Of a stretch of 64,000 nt of DNA, positions 27,225-63,882 are shown piece after piece (positions within the stretch are counted from its first letter, which is position 1; each line of letters opens with the position of its first letter). The notes beneath the pieces were generated by a model, which was not told the origin of the DNA, ran no database searches, and saw only the letters and a program-made list of their open reading frames with translations. Origin of the DNA: Oscillospiraceae bacterium. GTDB lineage: Bacteria > Bacillota > Clostridia > Oscillospirales > CAG-272. The stretch lies in NCBI GenBank assembly GCA_015063545.1, contig SVTX01000002.1:3672-67671 (forward strand), given 5' to 3'. A program made the translations under genes and the position numbers.

Positions 27225-27509
27225 TTATCTCTTTTTTCTTGATTTTTTACTGTCACATGAGTAACATTCACTGCCTGCAAGCTTTACAAGAATAGCGTCC
27301 TCCCCTACACATTCTATCTTATCCCATTTGATAACGATATCATTACGACCTCCAAACCATGCAAATCCCTCGCATCTTGAAACCACGATAGAAAGTATCT
27401 GACCGCAATCAAGATCAATTTCGTATTCCGTAGGATAGCCTATTTTTTCACCGTTGCATATATTTACGACCTCAAGTTCACTCAAATCTCTTGTACTGAT
27501 TTTTCGCAT
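27225..27509 (-). CDS. YlmC/YmxH-family sporulation PRC-barrel protein
   Basis: EVVNICNGEKIG....EID..CGQI.SIVV and W.KIECVGEDAILV motifs. Confidence 0.85.
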   Translation of the reverse strand: MRKISTRDLSELEVVNICNGEKIGYPTEYEIDLDCGQILSIVVSRCEGFAWFGGRNDIVIKWDKIECVGEDAILVKLAGSECYSCDSKKSRKKR

Positions 27510-27512
27510 AAC

Positions 27513-27562
27513 AAAACCTCGCCTTCGCATTTTTTAGAAATTATATGCGGTGACGAGGTTTT
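27513..27562 (-). terminator. Hairpin/terminator overlapping the ylmC-like RBS
   Basis: aaaacctcg/cgaggtttt and cgcat/atgcg stems. The GAGG RBS lies in the 3' arm. Confidence 0.65.
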
Positions 27563-27565
27563 TTA

Positions 27566-30379
27566 TTATTTTTTCAAATTTACTTTTGCGCTGATCTTGT
27601 GCGAAATCTTGCTGTATATGACTTCAACCGTCAGGTTTATCAGACAGAATATCGGTACAAGTATAAGCGATATAAAATTGAACTTTCCACCGTAGAATTC
27701 GCTCAATATATTATTGGGTATCCTCAAAAGTCTGATATATTCACCCTCAAATATAATGTCTGTAAGATAAAGCAATACGCATGCCGCAAAAATCGCAAAC
27801 ACAACGGCACTGAATATGATCAACAAGAGATTGCGCGCGCGACTTTTTCGATTTTTTCGCGAGTATTCCCGGCTTACCGTAAATACTTCGAGCGCAAAAA
27901 CAATGTATGCTCCCATAAAACTCGCAAACGCGATGCCGTCTCTCTGCAATATTCCGAAAATCAAAAGCAAAACGACCGCTACGGAATATATTGCCACCGA
28001 TATAGCGCGCGCTATCATGTGCGGCAAACTTTTTGTTATAATAATGCCCGGCATGGCAACGTACGAGCGCTTGTTTTTTCTGAGCATGTCCTTGCTTGGA
28101 CAGTTATTTGAGAAAACAACTATTCCCACAACGGTTGCAAATAAATATAAGGTAAGTATCTGCGGCGAAGTGATCATAACGATTCCCGTAACCATCGAAA
28201 AAAGCACAAGAGCAAGTATTATGCTGGTTTGCATCACAAAATACTTAAGGAAATACGCGAGATTTATGTATCCTGTACACGAAGCATCAGCGGCTTCAAG
28301 CACCTGATGCAGTCCGCCGTGAACATCCTTGGTTCTGTCCACAAGAACGTCAGATGCAATCCTACCTCGCTGAGAAGCAAGGTGCGATGTATCTGTACCC
28401 TGTTCGGGAAATTTTTCATAATAAGATTCCATATACTCGCGAGATGCATAATCTATACAGTTACAAGTAACAGAGACATCTGCTTGCATCAAAATCCCAT
28501 TGAATGCATCGTCAACTCCGTATGCCAATACAGTCTTGCCGTCTTCTTTCATTTTCGTCAAAAGAGCCATGTATTGGTTATTGTCAAATCCCAGATATGC
28601 ACGGAATTTTCCGTAATTTGTCAGAATATCGGATTTGTTTTTTTCAAATTCGGAAGCAAATGCTATTTTCGGATCAGACATAGACGAGGCAAATCCCGAC
28701 TGTATAAGATATTTGACCGTTTCGGGACTTTCGTCGGTAAAAAATGCCGTAATATTTACACCTAAGCTTCGATAACTCTCAACGGTTGCATTAAGATCAT
28801 CAACTATATGCTCTTCAAAAGCTATAATGCCCTCGAGTACAGTGTTTTCTCCCCGTACCGTGCCTTTTGTTATTTCTTCCGATATAACAAATATAAGCTT
28901 GTCTCCTCTGCTCTCACGTTCGTCAACATAATCGGATATTTTTTCTTTGAGCTTTGCGTCGATGGGGCACGCAATGTCTCCGACTCTCAAAAACTCGCAA
29001 ATATCCAACGTGTGAATATCAAATACTACAGCTGTGCGGTAAAAACCGCCCTGAGCCTCGGCGCACGCAAAACCCATTTTTTCTTCTTGATTTTCCAGAT
29101 AGTAAAGCGACTTGAGCTTGAGCTCAGCTCCTGTAGTATCATATCTGGACATTTCAATAAAGGACTGTAATCCTTTGCGAAATGCGTTGAATTTGGGAAA
29201 ATCCATTCCCTGTGTAACCCTGAGATATGTATATATGTACTCGCAGATCTTAAACGTTCTGTCGGGTTTTACTTCTATTATAGATGGATCAAAACTCCTT
29301 CCCGACAAAAACATACCGGCAACATGAAGCTCTCCGTCAGTCAATCCCGCACGTCCAAGCAAAAGGACGTCCGAAAAATCTGTAAGCACATCAAAAGCTT
29401 TGTTTTTTGTAATAACCGTGCCATCGCACAAACTTTCAGTCGCAGAATACAAAATTATCCTGCTCCAAATATCTACAGCTGACGAAGACACGTATAATAC
29501 AGATGACAGCGCCATCATGAATACCGCATACATACTCATCTGACGCAGCGTAAACATTCCGATCACCGACATTGTCAGTACAGCAACCGATGTAGCTACC
29601 GATACGGTTCTTAGTTTGTGTGCCAGCCTGGAAACACCTACGGGTCTTGGCGCATCTCCTGCCATTTCACCGTTGCACAAATGCTTTGCAAGCTCAGCAT
29701 TTTGTGCTACTCCTACAGCAATAGCGGTTCCAAAGCCGCTAAGAACCACGCTTCCGGCATAGACCATGTTTTCAGCAGACGAAATGTGACACGTATTCTC
29801 AGCATACACTTTTTGTGAATTCTTTTTTACACGTCGGCGTATAAGTTTTCTGGAATTTATATCATAAACAAACTCATCAAGCAACAATTCGTTGTCCGAG
29901 AGCAATCTAGCATCACAGGTAATGACGTCACCTGCAGAAAACATAATGATATCACCCGGTACTATATTTCTGCTATCCGTGTACATCGCCGTACCGGATC
30001 TCATAACCTTAACGGTAGGATTGGAATAAAGATCTGCCTTTTCCTTGGCGCGAATCGCCCTCAGATTCATAAATCCGAGCACTGCGTCCTGCACACATAT
30101 CAGTCCTATCATCCACGCTCCGAAATATTTGTGGCCGCTGAGAAAAGCAAAAACAGCAACTGCCAAAAACAAGACATGATTTAAGGACAAAAGCATTTGT
30201 GCAACACATGCCGCCGCATTCCTTCTTTTCGGTACGTAAAGCGGTGAACGCTCCTTTATTCCGCTATCTGTAAGCTCTTCGGCTCGTTTTCTTGCCTGCT
30301 CTCGGGAAAGCCCTTCTGTAACAGACGTATTAAGTTTTTCTTCCGTATCCTTTACGGAATAGGCATACCACTTATTCAT
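27566..30379 (-). CDS. P-type (P2-like) ATPase homolog lacking catalytic motifs (pseudo-enzyme)
   Basis: The scaffold is recognisable (GLS..QA..R, IVPGDII...GD.I.CDARL, NMVYAGS.V.SG.G). DKTGT is replaced by GRAGL, TGES is absent, and GDGVND is replaced by GVDDAFN. Confidence 0.8.
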   Translation of the reverse strand: MNKWYAYSVKDTEEKLNTSVTEGLSREQARKRAEELTDSGIKERSPLYVPKRRNAAACVAQMLLSLNHVLFLAVAVFAFLSGHKYFGAWMIGLICVQDAVLGFMNLRAIRAKEKADLYSNPTVKVMRSGTAMYTDSRNIVPGDIIMFSAGDVITCDARLLSDNELLLDEFVYDINSRKLIRRRVKKNSQKVYAENTCHISSAENMVYAGSVVLSGFGTAIAVGVAQNAELAKHLCNGEMAGDAPRPVGVSRLAHKLRTVSVATSVAVLTMSVIGMFTLRQMSMYAVFMMALSSVLYVSSSAVDIWSRIILYSATESLCDGTVITKNKAFDVLTDFSDVLLLGRAGLTDGELHVAGMFLSGRSFDPSIIEVKPDRTFKICEYIYTYLRVTQGMDFPKFNAFRKGLQSFIEMSRYDTTGAELKLKSLYYLENQEEKMGFACAEAQGGFYRTAVVFDIHTLDICEFLRVGDIACPIDAKLKEKISDYVDERESRGDKLIFVISEEITKGTVRGENTVLEGIIAFEEHIVDDLNATVESYRSLGVNITAFFTDESPETVKYLIQSGFASSMSDPKIAFASEFEKNKSDILTNYGKFRAYLGFDNNQYMALLTKMKEDGKTVLAYGVDDAFNGILMQADVSVTCNCIDYASREYMESYYEKFPEQGTDTSHLASQRGRIASDVLVDRTKDVHGGLHQVLEAADASCTGYINLAYFLKYFVMQTSIILALVLFSMVTGIVMITSPQILTLYLFATVVGIVVFSNNCPSKDMLRKNKRSYVAMPGIIITKSLPHMIARAISVAIYSVAVVLLLIFGILQRDGIAFASFMGAYIVFALEVFTVSREYSRKNRKSRARNLLLIIFSAVVFAIFAACVLLYLTDIIFEGEYIRLLRIPNNILSEFYGGKFNFISLILVPIFCLINLTVEVIYSKISHKISAKVNLKK

Positions 30380-30410: not shown

Positions 30411-32780
30411 CTACATACACTCTATACAGAGTTCTCCATCACGCATAAATATTTTTGCGACACTTACGCTCTTTTCATAATCGGATATTATAAGCTCTGC
30501 CAATCTATCCTCTATATTCTTCTGAATATATCTGCGCATATTTCTCGCGCCGTATTTTTGAGAATAAGAATTAGCGGCCACGTATTCAAACACATCTTCC
30601 GATATATCCAGCTTTATGCCTTTATCATTCAACAGATCACGAAGCTCGCCCAACATGATCTTTGCTATCTTTATAAAATCATTCTGAGTAAGGCTGTTGA
30701 ATGTAATTATCTCGTCTACGCGATTAATAAATTCGGGACGGAGGAACGCAGACAACGCCTTTTCTGTCTTCTCGTCATTTGCCTTGCTATCGTCAGGCAA
30801 AAATCCAACTACACCCGAGCTTTTGTCTGAGCCTGCATTTGTTGTCATTACTATAACGGTGTTTTCAAAGTTGACGGTTCTTCCGTGAGCATCGGTAATC
30901 CGTCCGTCGTCGAGTATCTGCAAAAGAATATTCAAAACGTCGGGATGCGCTTTCTCTATTTCGTCAAACAAAACAACGGAATACGGCTTGCGGCGTATCT
31001 TTTCTGTAAGCTGTCCCGCATCATCATATCCAAGATATCCGGGAGGCGAGCCGATTATTCTCGATACGGCATGCTTTTCCATATACTCGGACATATCAAG
31101 TCTTATAAGATTTTCGGGAGAATCGAACAGGTCTGCAGCGAGCGTCTTCACAAGCTCTGTCTTTCCGACGCCCGTAGGTCCTGCAAAAATAAAGGAAACG
31201 GGCTTTCTCTTGTAAGAAATACCTGCTCTGTTTCTCTTAACTGCTCTTGCAACTGCTTCTACCGCATGATCCTGACCGATCACGTGTGATTTGATACGGT
31301 CTGCAAGCAGATCTATTCTCTTAAATTCATTTTCTGTAATTGAAGTTGCCGGAACCCCTGTCCAGGTCTCAACAACTCTCGCAAGGTCTTCTTCTGAGAG
31401 AGTTATCTTCTCGCACTCCGCTTCAAGCTCCTTAAGCTTATTGGAAAGCTTGATCTCCTCGGACTGAATACGGGCAATAGTTTCGTATTTTTTACGATTC
31501 TGTTCATCATCGTTTGTTATCTCGGCTTCAGCAAGCTCACGCTGCTGCTTAAGTCTGAGAAGTCGGTCATGTATATCCAAAGACTCGTTTATGGACGAGC
31601 ATGAAAGTGACAGCTGCGCCGCCGCTTCGTCAAGCAAGTCGATAGCCTTGTCGGGAAGATATCTGTCGGTTATATAACGCTCGGAGAGTATAACTGCTCT
31701 GCGCAAAATAGACTCCGGAATATGAATTCTGTGGAACTTTTCATAGTAGTGGCTGATTCCCTTGAGCATCTCTACTGCATCTGATACTGAAGGCTCGTTT
31801 ACCGTTATGGGTTGGAAACGTCTCTCAAGCGCAGAATCCTTTTCTATATACTTGCGGTATTCGTTTAGCGTAGTGGCGCCGATAACACGCACCTCTCCTC
31901 GAGAAAGCGCGGGTTTAAGTATATTAGCCGCGTTAACGCTTCCTTCTCCTCCGCCAGTACCAACAATATTGTGAAGCTCATCTATTACAAGAATAGCATT
32001 TCCGTGATCCTTCACCTCCGACAAAAGTCCGAGTATTCTTGACTCAAACTGACCTCTGAACTGAGTTCCCGCAACAAGTGCGGTAAGATCCACAAGGAAA
32101 AGCTCCTTGTTTTTGAGTATATACGGAACGTTACCCTCCGCGATCCTGATAGCAAGACCTTCCGCAATCGCCGTTTTTCCCACGCCGGGCTCACCTATGA
32201 GACACGGATTGTTCTTTTGGCGACGGCAAAGTATCTGTATAACTCTGTCTGTTTCGTTCTTTCTGCCGACTATCTTATCCAGCTTGCCCTTTTTAGCATA
32301 TTCTGTAAGATTTCGGCAATAAGATGTGAGAAATTTATACTGCTTCTTTTGAGGCGCGTTTTTGTCGCCCTTGGGATTTTTCTGCCTGTTTGGTATCTCC
32401 ACGTTGGAATGCTCCGCAGGGGTACCTTCAGGTCTTTGCGCGGGTAGGTTCCCGTTTACAAAATCTGCAAGTCCGCTTTCTTTAAAAAGCTTTTGAAAAT
32501 CTATTGCGGGCGCTACGGGATCGCTTCCATCGCCTTCTCCGTCGGTTTCATCGTCAAAATCCGCGCTCGCGAGAACTCCATCAAGCTCGTTCTCAAGACT
32601 TTCTATCTGTTCCGGGGATATTCCCATTTTTTTGTACATATCTCCCATCATATTTTCAACGGGCAAGCCAAGCTCCTTTGCGCACTGAACGCAAAGCCCC
32701 TCGGACTTCTTTTGCCCCATTTCAACCTTTGTGACAAAAATCACAGCCATTCTTTTATGGCATTTTGAACACTTAATCAT
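30411..32780 (-). CDS. Clp/Hsp100 ATP-binding subunit with N-terminal Zn finger (ClpE/ClpC-like)
   Basis: CSKC...CVQC N-terminus and two AAA modules (GEPGVGKT/IDELH and GPTGVGKT/FDEIEK). Confidence 0.92.
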   Translation of the reverse strand: MIKCSKCHKRMAVIFVTKVEMGQKKSEGLCVQCAKELGLPVENMMGDMYKKMGISPEQIESLENELDGVLASADFDDETDGEGDGSDPVAPAIDFQKLFKESGLADFVNGNLPAQRPEGTPAEHSNVEIPNRQKNPKGDKNAPQKKQYKFLTSYCRNLTEYAKKGKLDKIVGRKNETDRVIQILCRRQKNNPCLIGEPGVGKTAIAEGLAIRIAEGNVPYILKNKELFLVDLTALVAGTQFRGQFESRILGLLSEVKDHGNAILVIDELHNIVGTGGGEGSVNAANILKPALSRGEVRVIGATTLNEYRKYIEKDSALERRFQPITVNEPSVSDAVEMLKGISHYYEKFHRIHIPESILRRAVILSERYITDRYLPDKAIDLLDEAAAQLSLSCSSINESLDIHDRLLRLKQQRELAEAEITNDDEQNRKKYETIARIQSEEIKLSNKLKELEAECEKITLSEEDLARVVETWTGVPATSITENEFKRIDLLADRIKSHVIGQDHAVEAVARAVKRNRAGISYKRKPVSFIFAGPTGVGKTELVKTLAADLFDSPENLIRLDMSEYMEKHAVSRIIGSPPGYLGYDDAGQLTEKIRRKPYSVVLFDEIEKAHPDVLNILLQILDDGRITDAHGRTVNFENTVIVMTTNAGSDKSSGVVGFLPDDSKANDEKTEKALSAFLRPEFINRVDEIITFNSLTQNDFIKIAKIMLGELRDLLNDKGIKLDISEDVFEYVAANSYSQKYGARNMRRYIQKNIEDRLAELIISDYEKSVSVAKIFMRDGELCIECM

Positions 32781-32793
32781 AGCAACTTCTCTT

Positions 32794-33279
32794 TCAACTT
32801 AAAACATCTTTTATAAAGCCGAATATATTCGACCTGTTCACAAATTTAAATACGTGCGACTGCTCGTAAATCAAGATAAACCTGTTATCTTGAGATATTT
32901 GAGTTATCGCGTTCAGCAAGGAATAAAGCATGACTGATACAAGCGAGACCGTAAGCACACCCAATACGGCACCTATTAAAGTTCCCAAAAGCTTATCGAT
33001 CTTGTTTATTATCGGAATATTTATCCTTCCCACAAGGAATATAAGCACCGTCGCGCCTATATACGTTGCAACGAATACGCATATATATCCTATAACTCTC
33101 GACAGTATTGGGGTATCGCCTATCATTTCTCCAACCGTGGGACCTATAAGCCACGCAAGTAAAAATGATGCTATTATTCTCGCAACGCCAAGCAATACAC
33201 CCGAAAGTCCTTTTTTCCAACCGTAGAATATCTCAAGAGCAAAAATTGTGATCAATGAAATATCTATAACAACGCTCAT
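32794..33279 (-). CDS. CvpA (colicin V production) family membrane protein
   Basis: G.KKGL...L, and IDKLLG.LIG.V.GV; four TM segments. Confidence 0.75.
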   Translation of the reverse strand: MSVVIDISLITIFALEIFYGWKKGLSGVLLGVARIIASFLLAWLIGPTVGEMIGDTPILSRVIGYICVFVATYIGATVLIFLVGRINIPIINKIDKLLGTLIGAVLGVLTVSLVSVMLYSLLNAITQISQDNRFILIYEQSHVFKFVNRSNIFGFIKDVLS

Positions 33280-33290
33280 GCGTTTATCTC

Positions 33291-34631
33291 CTACTCAATA
33301 TCAATATATATTCCGCGGGAGTCTGTACAAAGAAGAACTCTGTTTTTATCGCATACAAGGAGCTGACCATATGAGTCCTTTATCTCCTTGAATACGGATA
33401 TTTTTGTCTTATAATTGTACTTTATTATTCCATTGTTGGTAAGTAAAAATACATTCTCTCCGTGCATCTGCATGTCGGTATATGCGCCGCTGATGCCGCC
33501 GTTATGTATCACTTTTCCCTTCTTGTTTATCACAACAAGAGTATTTTTTTCGTTTAGTAGATCGTCCTCAAACATAAGCGATACCGCGCCGTCCGTATAT
33601 GAGATATAAGAAAGCTTTGATTCGGGATACATGAACTCACTTATCATCTCACCTTTTACGCTGTATATACGCACCCTGTCAGAGCAGAAAACGGCAACTC
33701 GTCTGTCCGAGATGAACTTACACATATACGGGGTAATGCCGTTTACGGTTATCTGAGCATAGATCTCATCCTTATTTTGCTTGAGGAAGGTTATTTCGGT
33801 TATCATGCTGCCGTTATTTGCGGTCGCGGCCACAACAGCAACAAACTTTCCGTTGTCCGACATCTCCGCCGCAATAACGTATTCATTACACGAATACGTA
33901 TTTATTTCTTTGCAATCATTGTCGTAAATATGTACAACAGAATTATAATCCTGTGATTTTTCAACCACCGCAAAAGCTCCGTCATTGGACATGGAGGCAT
34001 ATGCAATACTTCCGTCGTATGTAAATGAATGAAGCTTTTTAAACGAATTATAAACAGAGAATCTGCCAGCCCCCAGATCATATACCATAACATATTTGTT
34101 TGAGGTGGCGATCACAGGAGTTGAATATATGTCTCCCGACGTCAAGGTAACTCTTCCCGTTGCATTGAAAAGCTTTATTTCACTGTTTGATGCAACCGCC
34201 AGCCCTCTTTTGTACAATGCAAAATCCGCATTGGTTTGTGTTTTGGTGTAATTAAGGGTATCGGCTCCACCTTCTGAGTAGGAATTCATATACCCTATAT
34301 CCTTTGCCATATAATATATGTCATCTACGCCAAGCCTTCCCGCGCTGAATATAAGTCCAAGAGATGCCGTTAATATCAGCATAACACATATTATGAGACA
34401 CAGCAATCTGAGCTTTATCGCATAGTTGGCATACCCCTCGTCACTTCCGCAACGCGCCTTTATGAGTGCGCGCTCTTTTGCTATTTTTGTTTTTACGGGG
34501 GATGAATTGCGTATATTTTCAGATATCCTGTCAAAAACAAATATTATGCGACCAAGAAAAGTCAACTCTTTTTTGTTGCGTTTGCGCTTTTTTGCGAGTT
34601 CCTTTGTTTCTTTTTCTCTTTTTCTTTTCAC
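33291..34631 (-). CDS. Membrane-anchored beta-propeller-like protein (DUF5711-like)
   Basis: Basic N-terminus, one TM segment, then repeating beta-strand units. The family name is from recollection and the CvpA neighbourhood. Confidence 0.6.
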   Translation of the reverse strand: MKRKREKETKELAKKRKRNKKELTFLGRIIFVFDRISENIRNSSPVKTKIAKERALIKARCGSDEGYANYAIKLRLLCLIICVMLILTASLGLIFSAGRLGVDDIYYMAKDIGYMNSYSEGGADTLNYTKTQTNADFALYKRGLAVASNSEIKLFNATGRVTLTSGDIYSTPVIATSNKYVMVYDLGAGRFSVYNSFKKLHSFTYDGSIAYASMSNDGAFAVVEKSQDYNSVVHIYDNDCKEINTYSCNEYVIAAEMSDNGKFVAVVAATANNGSMITEITFLKQNKDEIYAQITVNGITPYMCKFISDRRVAVFCSDRVRIYSVKGEMISEFMYPESKLSYISYTDGAVSLMFEDDLLNEKNTLVVINKKGKVIHNGGISGAYTDMQMHGENVFLLTNNGIIKYNYKTKISVFKEIKDSYGQLLVCDKNRVLLCTDSRGIYIDIE

Positions 34632-63060: not shown

Positions 63061-63882
63061 ATGACAGAACGCAAGAAAAAGTACATACACCTATTTTACA
63101 GCGTCTATCTCTCGGTATTGATAATCAATGCCGCACTGCATATTATTTTTGCTGTTTGCGCAATATATTTTGGAGCAAATTCGGAATTTTCGCGCGAGAT
63201 CGTCTCAACGCAATTTGCAAAAATAGCAATTCCCGTATATATATGCCTTGGCGGTATAATCGTGGGATTCTTGCTTTCCCTGTTCCTTCCCGTAAATGAA
63301 AGCGCAATGCCTAAGGGAAAGTCAAAAAAGGACAAATCCAAGAAGAATTATAAAATGATATACGAAAGACTCGCCAAAAAGATCGATTTGTCACAGTGCG
63401 ATGCTGAGCTTTCTGAAAAAATCAAGAAAGAACGCAAGCTTCGTATGATATACTCTTACGTATGTCTCGGACTTACAGTATTATCGGCTATTCCTTTTAT
63501 GATCATCATCTGTAATCCTAACAGATATGACAAGTATCTTATAAACGAAAGCATCATTCCCTCCGTTATTATAATGTTTATCTGGTGTGTGCTTGCATTT
63601 ATATTCGTATTGGGATCAAGCATCATACGCACCGAAAGCATGAAATCCGAAATTCTTCTTCTTAAGGAAGCCATAGAAAACAAGAGTGGTCTGATTGTCG
63701 AAAAGGCAGAGACTCCCACCGCAGAAGAACAAAAGAAAAAACTTATTACCGTTTGGAGTATTCGAGGCGCAATAGTCACTGTAGCTCTCGTGTTCATTAT
63801 AATCGGAATTTGTAACGGCGGCATGGCAGATGTTCTCGGCAAAGCTGTCAGACTTTGTACCGAATGTATAGGATTGGGTTGA
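63061..63882 (+). CDS. Polytopic membrane protein ending in a CD1871A-like CxxC module
   Basis: Five TM segments and a C-terminal GG..DVL.KAVRLCTECIGLG. The family name is from recollection. Confidence 0.7.
   Translation: MTERKKKYIHLFYSVYLSVLIINAALHIIFAVCAIYFGANSEFSREIVSTQFAKIAIPVYICLGGIIVGFLLSLFLPVNESAMPKGKSKKDKSKKNYKMIYERLAKKIDLSQCDAELSEKIKKERKLRMIYSYVCLGLTVLSAIPFMIIICNPNRYDKYLINESIIPSVIIMFIWCVLAFIFVLGSSIIRTESMKSEILLLKEAIENKSGLIVEKAETPTAEEQKKKLITVWSIRGAIVTVALVFIIIGICNGGMADVLGKAVRLCTECIGLG

Follow-up and report, generated by a model that had tools for sequence, protein, structure and literature searches.

P-type ATPases are, to our knowledge, among the best-understood membrane enzymes, and in the reviews known to us the aspartate of the DKTGT motif is taken as universal. 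A gene in a 64,000-nucleotide (nt) stretch of DNA from an Oscillospiraceae bacterium (GenBank assembly GCA_015063545.1, contig SVTX01000002.1, positions 3,672 to 67,671), hereafter called the window, raises the question of what becomes of such a pump when this aspartate and all other catalytic signatures are gone. The gene product, P0001, was described in a first-pass annotation of the window as a full-length but catalytically dead pump that is selected for a non-enzymatic role. This view is supported by the loss of the motifs in the orthologues, by a low ratio of nonsynonymous to synonymous substitution rates (dN/dS) and by the kept fold. As far as can be judged from its sequence, P0001 is a pseudo-enzyme, because the frame is intact across species and under purifying selection despite the lost catalytic residues.

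An intact gene without catalytic motifs

The frame of 937 codons that had been annotated (Table 1) was borne out by the open reading frame (ORF) call and the translation, and a GGGAAGG-type ribosome-binding site was indeed found 4-5 nt 5' of the ATG. The proposed P2-type layout, which consists of an N-terminal element, the A domain, M1-M4, the P and N domains and a C-terminal transmembrane (TM) bundle, agrees with a profile-profile alignment and with a full-length fold match. In Pfam, PF00122 (E1-E2_ATPase) matches residues 119-291, which correspond to the A domain with its flanking helices (3.7e-14, 53 bits vs a cut-off of 28). Cation_ATPase_N matches only below threshold, and no match was obtained with PF00702 (hydrolase), PF13246 (nucleotide-binding) and PF00689 (C-terminal). 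All P-type models of NCBIfam score far under their cut-offs (for instance, TIGR01494 with 19.8 bits vs 62.3). A sequence search of the PDB aligned only residues 70-270, with the Listeria Ca-pump LMCA1 as the best match (4e-10).

The register of the motifs was set by an hhalign profile-profile comparison of the pump family with 20 canonical pumps, which aligned over 720 columns with a probability of 100 and an E-value of 7.7e-53. At the phosphorylation site, L341 falls on S, G342 on the phospho-Asp, R343 on K and A344 on T, and the motif reads LGRA-G. The codon of G342 lies at 29354-29356, exactly where the first-pass annotation had placed a glycine codon in lieu of the phospho-Asp. Across 151 family sequences, the phospho-Asp column holds P, L, V or F and never D. 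The TGES Glu column is occupied by mixed residues in the family, and a basic family-specific insert, KLIRRRVKKN, comes after the TGES position. A second family-specific insert of ~25-30 amino acids (aa; TCNxIDYxS...) follows the GDGVND position, and the DPPR position of P0001 reads E-H-I-V. Throughout the family, KTG, TGES, the Mg-site Asp residues, KGA and DPPR have been lost jointly. Thus, the earlier claim that every catalytic signature is replaced could be confirmed, and the replacement strings that it gave are correct to within one residue of register. P0001 fails every enzymatic criterion for P-type membership that was tested (DKTGT, TGES, TGD/GDGxNDxP and the hydrolase models). From these residues it is predicted that the protein can neither form an aspartyl-phosphate nor dephosphorylate, and that it has no Ca-type ion site.

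Two remnants were seen in other members of the family. An Asp is located one column past the phospho-site in L014, L016 and L018 and in 28 of the 151 family representatives (e.g. DHLALT, DDTALT). A shift by one residue would bring this Asp to the catalytic position, with KTG and the Mg-site residues still absent. Moreover, the L011-type subclade retains a GSGLND-like remnant of GDGVND.

Purifying selection and size of the family

The same motif replacements were found in 16 full-length orthologues (40-49% identity, 928-937 aa) and in two distant ones. The first-pass annotation had named retention of DKTGT in orthologues and a dN/dS near 1 as signs of mere decay. Instead, DKTGT is absent from all 16 close orthologues, from ~24 ClpE-linked loci and from the best 150 cluster representatives, and the dN/dS of the pump gene is 0.10-0.12 for an orthologous locus pair with 87% protein identity and an unsaturated dS of 0.6-0.7. 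For the same locus pair, values of 0.11-0.13 were obtained for dagK, 0.08-0.10 for a Rce1-like gene and 0.03 for clpE. At a dS of 0.7-1.0, the pump gene gave 0.099-0.12, similar to its ordinary neighbours dagK (0.11) and rce1 (0.08). When four pairs were analysed per domain, each of the A, P, N and TM parts gave a dN/dS of 0.05-0.15, with no higher values for the P and N domains, dead though they are. The highest values (0.15-0.29) were found in the N-terminal 60 residues. Since the dN/dS is low in every part of the pump, the whole protein is under purifying selection and not in decay.

A search with the family profile in 1.84 billion cluster representatives (50% identity) revealed that DKTG is missing from the site in every one of the best 150 matches (150/150), the scores of which are 490 bits or more. 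The sole DKTG string among them is located off-site, at residue 699 of P0131. Canonical pumps reach at most ~466 bits with this profile in the genome search, which puts the family at no fewer than 150 clusters (50% identity). An intact frame was found in ~25 species and in the 150 cluster representatives. A look-up of names for the proteins of the family clusters yielded none in any source. In a search of 400 class-level and 61 order-level genomes, dead and live pumps were not separable by the profile score, canonical Ca-pumps scoring 380-466 bits. For this reason, adjacency to clpE and fetched loci were used to recognise family members.

Two deviations in gene structure may be mentioned. In Clostridium sp. 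CAG:448 (L008:5557-8462, FR890569.1), two overlapping ORFs of 516 and 458 aa take the place of the single dead-pump frame; this reflects a frameshift error or, alternatively, that the gene has become a true pseudogene in this one genome. Furthermore, P0143, P0144, P0151 and P0155 (1073-1286 aa) carry C-terminal extensions of 140-350 aa, which are acidic, rich in Pro, Ser and Glu and disordered-looking. P0001 has no such extension.

The retained fold

Structure prediction indicates that the fold of P0001 is kept over the full length. An AlphaFold2 model built on 18 family sequences reached a mean predicted local distance difference test (pLDDT) score of 82.9 and a predicted TM-score (pTM) of 0.81. 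Using Foldseek, the model could be matched to LMCA1, SPCA1, SERCA, PMCA, the Na/K- and H/K-ATPases and MgtA over ~970 columns (E ~1e-31, TM-score 0.5-0.65). These full-length matches imply that the P and N domains persist as folds despite the lost sequence signatures. All ten TM helices are kept together with the A, P and N domains and the N-terminal element, and the cytoplasmic headpiece and the stalk make up ~680 of the 937 residues. By homology and fold (PF00122, hhalign, Foldseek), P0001 belongs to the P-type ATPase superfamily and is nearest to the P2A Ca-pumps.

Linkage to clpE

According to the first-pass annotation, the gene sits between a Clp unfoldase and a sporulation gene. Indeed, a gene for a Clp-type protein with two AAA+ modules (P0002) lies upstream and a gene of the YlmC/YmxH sporulation family (P0003) lies downstream. 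The clpE stop codon is separated by 31 nt from the start of the dead-pump gene, and ylmC begins 35 nt past its stop. P0002 contains an N-terminal zinc ribbon (C4-x2-C7-x22-C30-x2-C33), two AAA+ modules with the Pfam matches AAA, AAA_lid_9, AAA_2 and ClpB_D2-small, and a VGF loop ('SGVVGFLPD'). The defining features of the ClpE protein from E. faecalis are a zinc site formed by C3, C6, C29 and C32 and the VGF loop for ClpP (PMC13125188). With its predicted four-Cys zinc site, the two AAA+ domains and the VGF ClpP loop, P0002 can be classified as ClpE-like. Further upstream follow the genes for a CvpA-family membrane protein, which is kept in the block at close and distant loci, and for a DUF5711 protein, the first gene of the conserved DUF5711-CvpA-ClpE-pump block. 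The DUF5711 protein starts with a basic segment and has a single TM helix, and a beta-rich domain is predicted outside the cytoplasm. The host genome (1.83 Mb, ~92% complete) further encodes a ClpC-like protein, ClpX, ClpP, FtsH and Spo0A. The idea that ClpE and the pump replace FtsH was rejected because FtsH is encoded in this genome.

The linkage is not a peculiarity of the window. Among 38 loci that were recovered from species-representative genomes, the ATPase-like genes without motifs have clpE directly upstream wherever upstream sequence exists (~25 loci). Between the clpE stop and the start of the pump gene lie -1 to 108 nt, with 27 nt as the median. Those matches that keep the motifs are unlinked to clpE. 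They comprise archaeal and Chitinophagaceae sequences, a Patescibacteria sequence with DKTG, TGES and GDGxND, L030 and the convergent neighbour in L026. Five distant cluster representatives were also inspected, and in all five the pump gene comes after clpE: three long contigs contain DUF5711-CvpA-ClpE-pump, while in the two short contigs the upstream fragment is the ClpE C-terminus. The usual setting is ecfA1-ecfA2-ecfT-truA-DUF5711-(cvpA)-clpE-pump-(ylmC-rpsB-tsf). The clpE-pump pair is kept in L010 without the rest of this block and in other lineages with different downstream genes; ylmC is the next gene after the pump at many loci, though not at every one.

In the window, no minus-strand terminator is predicted between clpE and the pump gene, and clpE is part of a long co-directional block instead of being monocistronic. 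No CtsR operator was found near clpE. The sole match in the window, AGTCAAAAAAGGACAAA at 63320-63336 (+), has one mismatch and is at chance level (0.74 expected).

A relative with intact motifs occurs beside the dead pump in one metagenome-assembled genome of the Oscillospiraceae. In this case, a canonical Ca-pump-like gene with intact DKTG, TGES, PEGL and GDGxND (L026:10939-13725 (-)) is convergent to the dead-pump gene and located directly after it.

Distribution and origin

The dead-pump family is found in a lineage of uncultured gut and rumen Clostridia, in which it is kept under strong selection. Each of the 61 genomes that were sampled from the order of the window encodes an orthologue of the zinc-ribbon ClpE (49-61% identity). 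However, only six of the 61 have an ATPase-like gene directly after clpE, namely the genome of the window itself, two further members of its family and three genomes from two other families. At 20 clpE loci from other genomes, no match to the family profile was detected downstream (E below 1e-3); 18 of these loci have 6 kb of downstream sequence, while the contigs of L050 and L051 end at most ~540 nt past clpE. Pump-free genomes of the order likewise have DUF5711 next to clpE. Thus, there is a one-way dependence: the pump was never seen without ClpE, whereas ClpE mostly occurs without the pump. This agrees with the finding that ClpE acts autonomously in vitro (PMC13125188).

In a ClpE tree, the 20 pump-linked sequences fall into one clade with 99% local support. 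Two 'free' ClpE proteins are also found in this clade, of which that of L051 is uninformative and that of L053 looks like a loss of the pump. As the pump-linked ClpE proteins form essentially one clade, a single ancient acquisition can be assumed. The simplest history suggested by these sequences would be one ancient insertion of a Ca-pump paralogue after clpE, which was followed by vertical co-inheritance and occasional loss. Four pump-free clpE loci of the same order (L042-L045) have ORFs of 437-659 aa without a match to the family profile directly after clpE.

A putative membrane-embedded partner of ClpE

Among the roles that had been proposed for the dead pump (scaffold, regulatory subunit, sensor or leak channel), the gene linkage speaks most for a scaffold or a regulatory subunit that serves the Clp unfoldase, while a leak channel or an ion sensor is least likely because the core residues are lost. 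We therefore consider it possible, with a probability of about 0.5, that the dead pump is a non-catalytic, membrane-embedded partner of ClpE, perhaps in association with ClpP. A P2-type (Ca-pump-like) ATPase would have become a pseudo-enzyme once, directly downstream of the gene for the zinc-ribbon ClpE-type AAA+ unfoldase, and would then have been inherited with clpE as a co-transcribed pair under purifying selection. The large cytoplasmic headpiece could serve as a docking or regulatory platform, which places the unfoldase at the membrane or controls it, and CvpA and DUF5711, the other membrane proteins of the block, might act jointly with it. From the gene arrangement we infer co-transcription and a physical or functional interaction with ClpE, in which the pump may be anchor, adaptor, regulator or dedicated substrate.

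Several observations weigh against a partnership with ClpE. The clpE-pump pair sits inside the larger conserved block that extends from ecfA1 to tsf, so that some of the linkage may be synteny passed on by descent. The species-corrected distance correlation between the pump and ClpE (r 0.51) is no better than those of the controls ecfT (0.48) and truA (0.32), which makes the mirror-tree approach, and thus rate covariation, uninformative. When the N-terminal regions of ClpE were compared by eye, nothing was seen that would tell pump-linked copies from pump-free ones. Moreover, the evolutionary rate of the pump exceeds that of ClpE by a factor of 4-5 (mean distance 2.3 vs 0.5), and such a rate gap would be unusual for a tight stoichiometric partner. 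The DUF5711 protein matches the pump in its rate (mean distance 2.4 vs 0.5 for ClpE).

Some of these observations would be expected if the dead pump were instead a structural or signalling membrane protein of an envelope or sporulation programme, which acts with DUF5711, CvpA and/or YlmC, and if the adjacency to clpE reflected nothing but shared ancestry and transcription. The position of the pump gene in a long conserved block, the equally fast evolution of DUF5711, the lack of specificity of the mirror-tree signal with ClpE, the presence of ylmC after the pump in many loci and Spo0A in the genome are all in line with such a role. We nevertheless regard it as rather unlikely, because DUF5711 and clpE also occur together in pump-free genomes, ylmC is missing downstream in several lineages, and the clpE-pump pair of L010 persists without the rest of the block. 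The link to sporulation that the first-pass annotation had drawn from the downstream neighbour holds in so far as ylmC adjoins the pump gene in the window. However, this neighbour is its sole basis, and other members of the family have different downstream genes.

The membrane core

The former ion-binding site has been remodelled within the family. At the four ion-site columns (the M4 Glu of PEGL, the M5 Asn and Glu, and the M6 Asp), P0001 reads S, T, I and T and thus lacks the ion-site residues of P2A Ca2+-ATPases. The M4 Glu is kept in 96 of the 151 family members, but not in the clade of the window. At the M5 position that corresponds to E771 of SERCA, 125 of the 151 members have a basic residue (Arg in 117, Lys in 8), and at the M6 position of D800 an acidic residue is found in 126 (Asp in 121, Glu in 5). 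The M5 base and the M6 acid are both present in 125 members, both absent in 25 and mixed in a single one. On the family tree, each of the two traits changes ~5 times, and the changes are joint in 4-5 of five independent contrasts. These are too few events of coupled loss for significance (sign test, p 0.06-0.125). The co-occurrence of the residues suggests that an intramembrane Arg-Asp pair fills the former ion site in most members of the family. Such a pair resembles the built-in counter-ion of P3A proton pumps. The clade of the window belongs to the minority in which the whole charged core is gone (M4 Glu, M5 Arg and M6 Asp) and which is still under selection; a role as a channel or an ion sensor is therefore unlikely for P0001.

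This bears on the idea that the TM domain works without ATP, either as a passive path for cations or protons or as a sensor of ions, pH or voltage with the headpiece as a relay. The M4 Glu, the M6 acid and the M5 base that are kept in so many members, the coupled changes in M5 and M6 and the similarity to the P3A counter-ion would fit this idea. However, the Arg-Asp pair may merely neutralise an empty site, and selection persists in the clade of the window even though the charged core is gone. A function as an ion path or sensor appears improbable to us for these reasons.

We give similarly little credence to the dead pump being a dedicated substrate or a decoy of ClpE-ClpP, in which case the pairing might, for instance, serve to extract or degrade this membrane protein in a regulated manner. 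The evidence from the linkage is the same as for a partner of ClpE, the one-way dependence is compatible with a substrate, and the long, disordered acidic tails of some members are possible engagement sites. However, the termini vary, no conserved terminal degron was seen in them, and a multi-domain fold of 937 aa that is selected in every domain exceeds what a degradation tag needs. Finally, a decaying pseudogene, an assembly error or an active pump with unorthodox chemistry, for which the split gene of L008 and the displaced Asp of 28 of 151 members (one column past the phospho-site) might be invoked, is hardly credible given the intact frame in ~25 species and 150 cluster representatives, the dN/dS of ~0.1, the joint loss of KTG, TGES, the Mg-site Asp residues, KGA and DPPR and the two canonical P-type ATPases that the same genome encodes.

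Comparison with known systems and significance

P0001 shares the length, the domain order, the PF00122 domain and the fold with the bacterial P2A Ca2+-ATPases (LMCA1, PDB 6zhf/6zhh/9euq/9evc; PMR1/SPCA and SERCA types), and structural residues of the A domain (VPGD, GD.I..D.R and NM..GS) are common to both. In contrast to these pumps, P0001 lacks DKTGT, TGES, PEGL, KGA, DPPR, TGD and GDGVND as well as the Glu, Asn and Asp of the Ca site in M4, M5 and M6. It also differs by the inserts after the TGES and GDGVND positions and by having no PF00702 or PF00689 match. Similarly, P0002 resembles the ClpE proteins that act with ClpP in Bacilli such as E. faecalis and B. subtilis by the spacing of its four-Cys zinc site, the two AAA+ modules and the VGF ClpP loop (PMC13125188). 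The clpE genes of Bacilli are reported to be monocistronic and controlled by CtsR, and the protein to be autonomous and independent of adaptors, although adaptors have not been excluded (PMC13125188). The clpE gene of the window, unlike those of Bacilli, belongs to a co-directional block, has no CtsR box nearby and is followed by the gene for a membrane protein.

In the full-text literature that was searched, neither a free-standing, selected and catalytically dead P-type ATPase family nor a pairing of ClpE with a P-type ATPase was found. The nearest precedent is the Plasmodium guanylyl cyclase beta (PfGC-beta), which contains a degenerate P4-ATPase-like domain that is kept in a functional protein and in which most signature residues are unidentifiable (PMC6592433). 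However, the domain of PfGC-beta is of the eukaryotic P4 type and fused to a cyclase, whereas P0001 is of the bacterial P2 type and stands alone as a protein, and its gene adjoins that of an AAA+ unfoldase.

Dead or repurposed membrane-enzyme scaffolds also take part in the extraction of membrane proteins, as exemplified by the Derlins, which are inactive rhomboids working with Cdc48/p97, and by the P5A-ATPase, a dislocase of TM helices. The concept is shared with the dead pump by analogy only, as there is no homology. A far-reaching extension of the partnership with ClpE, which we consider distinctly unlikely, would be a DUF5711-CvpA-ClpE(-ClpP)-pump machine in which the dead pump, as a P-type scaffold that has ceased to consume ATP, acts as membrane receptor or lateral gate and hands membrane or envelope proteins to the unfoldase for extraction or degradation. 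In most members, the scaffold might be stabilised or switched by the pair of M5 Arg and M6 Asp. If this were true, the machine would be a bacterial functional analogue of the Derlin-p97 system or of the P5A dislocase.

The dead-pump family is the first candidate for a dedicated membrane-embedded partner of ClpE. It also represents a natural experiment on which parts of the P-type fold survive the loss of catalysis. Moreover, annotation that relies on homology only could label such genes as cation pumps and thereby mislead reconstructions of transport and metabolism in gut Clostridia. New in the present analysis are the counts of ClpE (61/61) versus the pump (6), the origin in a single clade, the dN/dS per domain, the counts of the Arg-Asp pair together with the test on the tree and the placement of P0001 in a 'doubly dead' clade.

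Further features of the window

The positions of the dead-pump gene, its motif remnants and its neighbours are compiled in Table 1. Between the last two TM helices, the clade of the window has an extra segment of ~20 aa, EGEYIRLLRIPNNILSEFYGG, which is not present in distant family members or canonical pumps. In P0001, it comprises residues ~879-899 and is encoded at ~27680-27745 (-).

Table 1 Features of the dead-pump locus (positions in the window)
Feature	Position	Strand	Basis or remark
Dead-pump gene (P0001)	27566..30379	-	Intact 937-aa P2-type ATPase homologue
TGES position, D173-I174-N175-S176	29852..29863	-	A-domain loop
PE(G/A)L position (M4), S298-S299-S300-A301	29477..29488	-	Pro and ion-site Glu both gone
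Phosphorylation-loop remnant, L339-LLGRAGLTDG-349	29333..29365	-	hhalign columns, MAFFT alignments
TGD position (P domain), F547-T548-D549	28733..28741	-	hhalign
GDGVND position (P domain), G621-V-D-D-A-F626	28502..28519	-	Both Mg-site Asp positions replaced
M5-M6 core	28133..28219	-	I721 at the SERCA E771 equivalent, T749 at the D800 equivalent
YlmC/YmxH-family PRC-barrel protein (P0003)	27225..27530	-	TIGR02888, 59.4 bits vs cut-off 44.2; PF05239
ClpE-like Hsp100 unfoldase (P0002, 789 aa)	30411..32780	-	Pfam, NCBIfam, sequence
CvpA-family membrane protein	32794..33279	-	PF02674; 13-nt gap to clpE
DUF5711 protein	33291..34631	-	PF18975, 1.4e-29; 11-nt gap to cvpA

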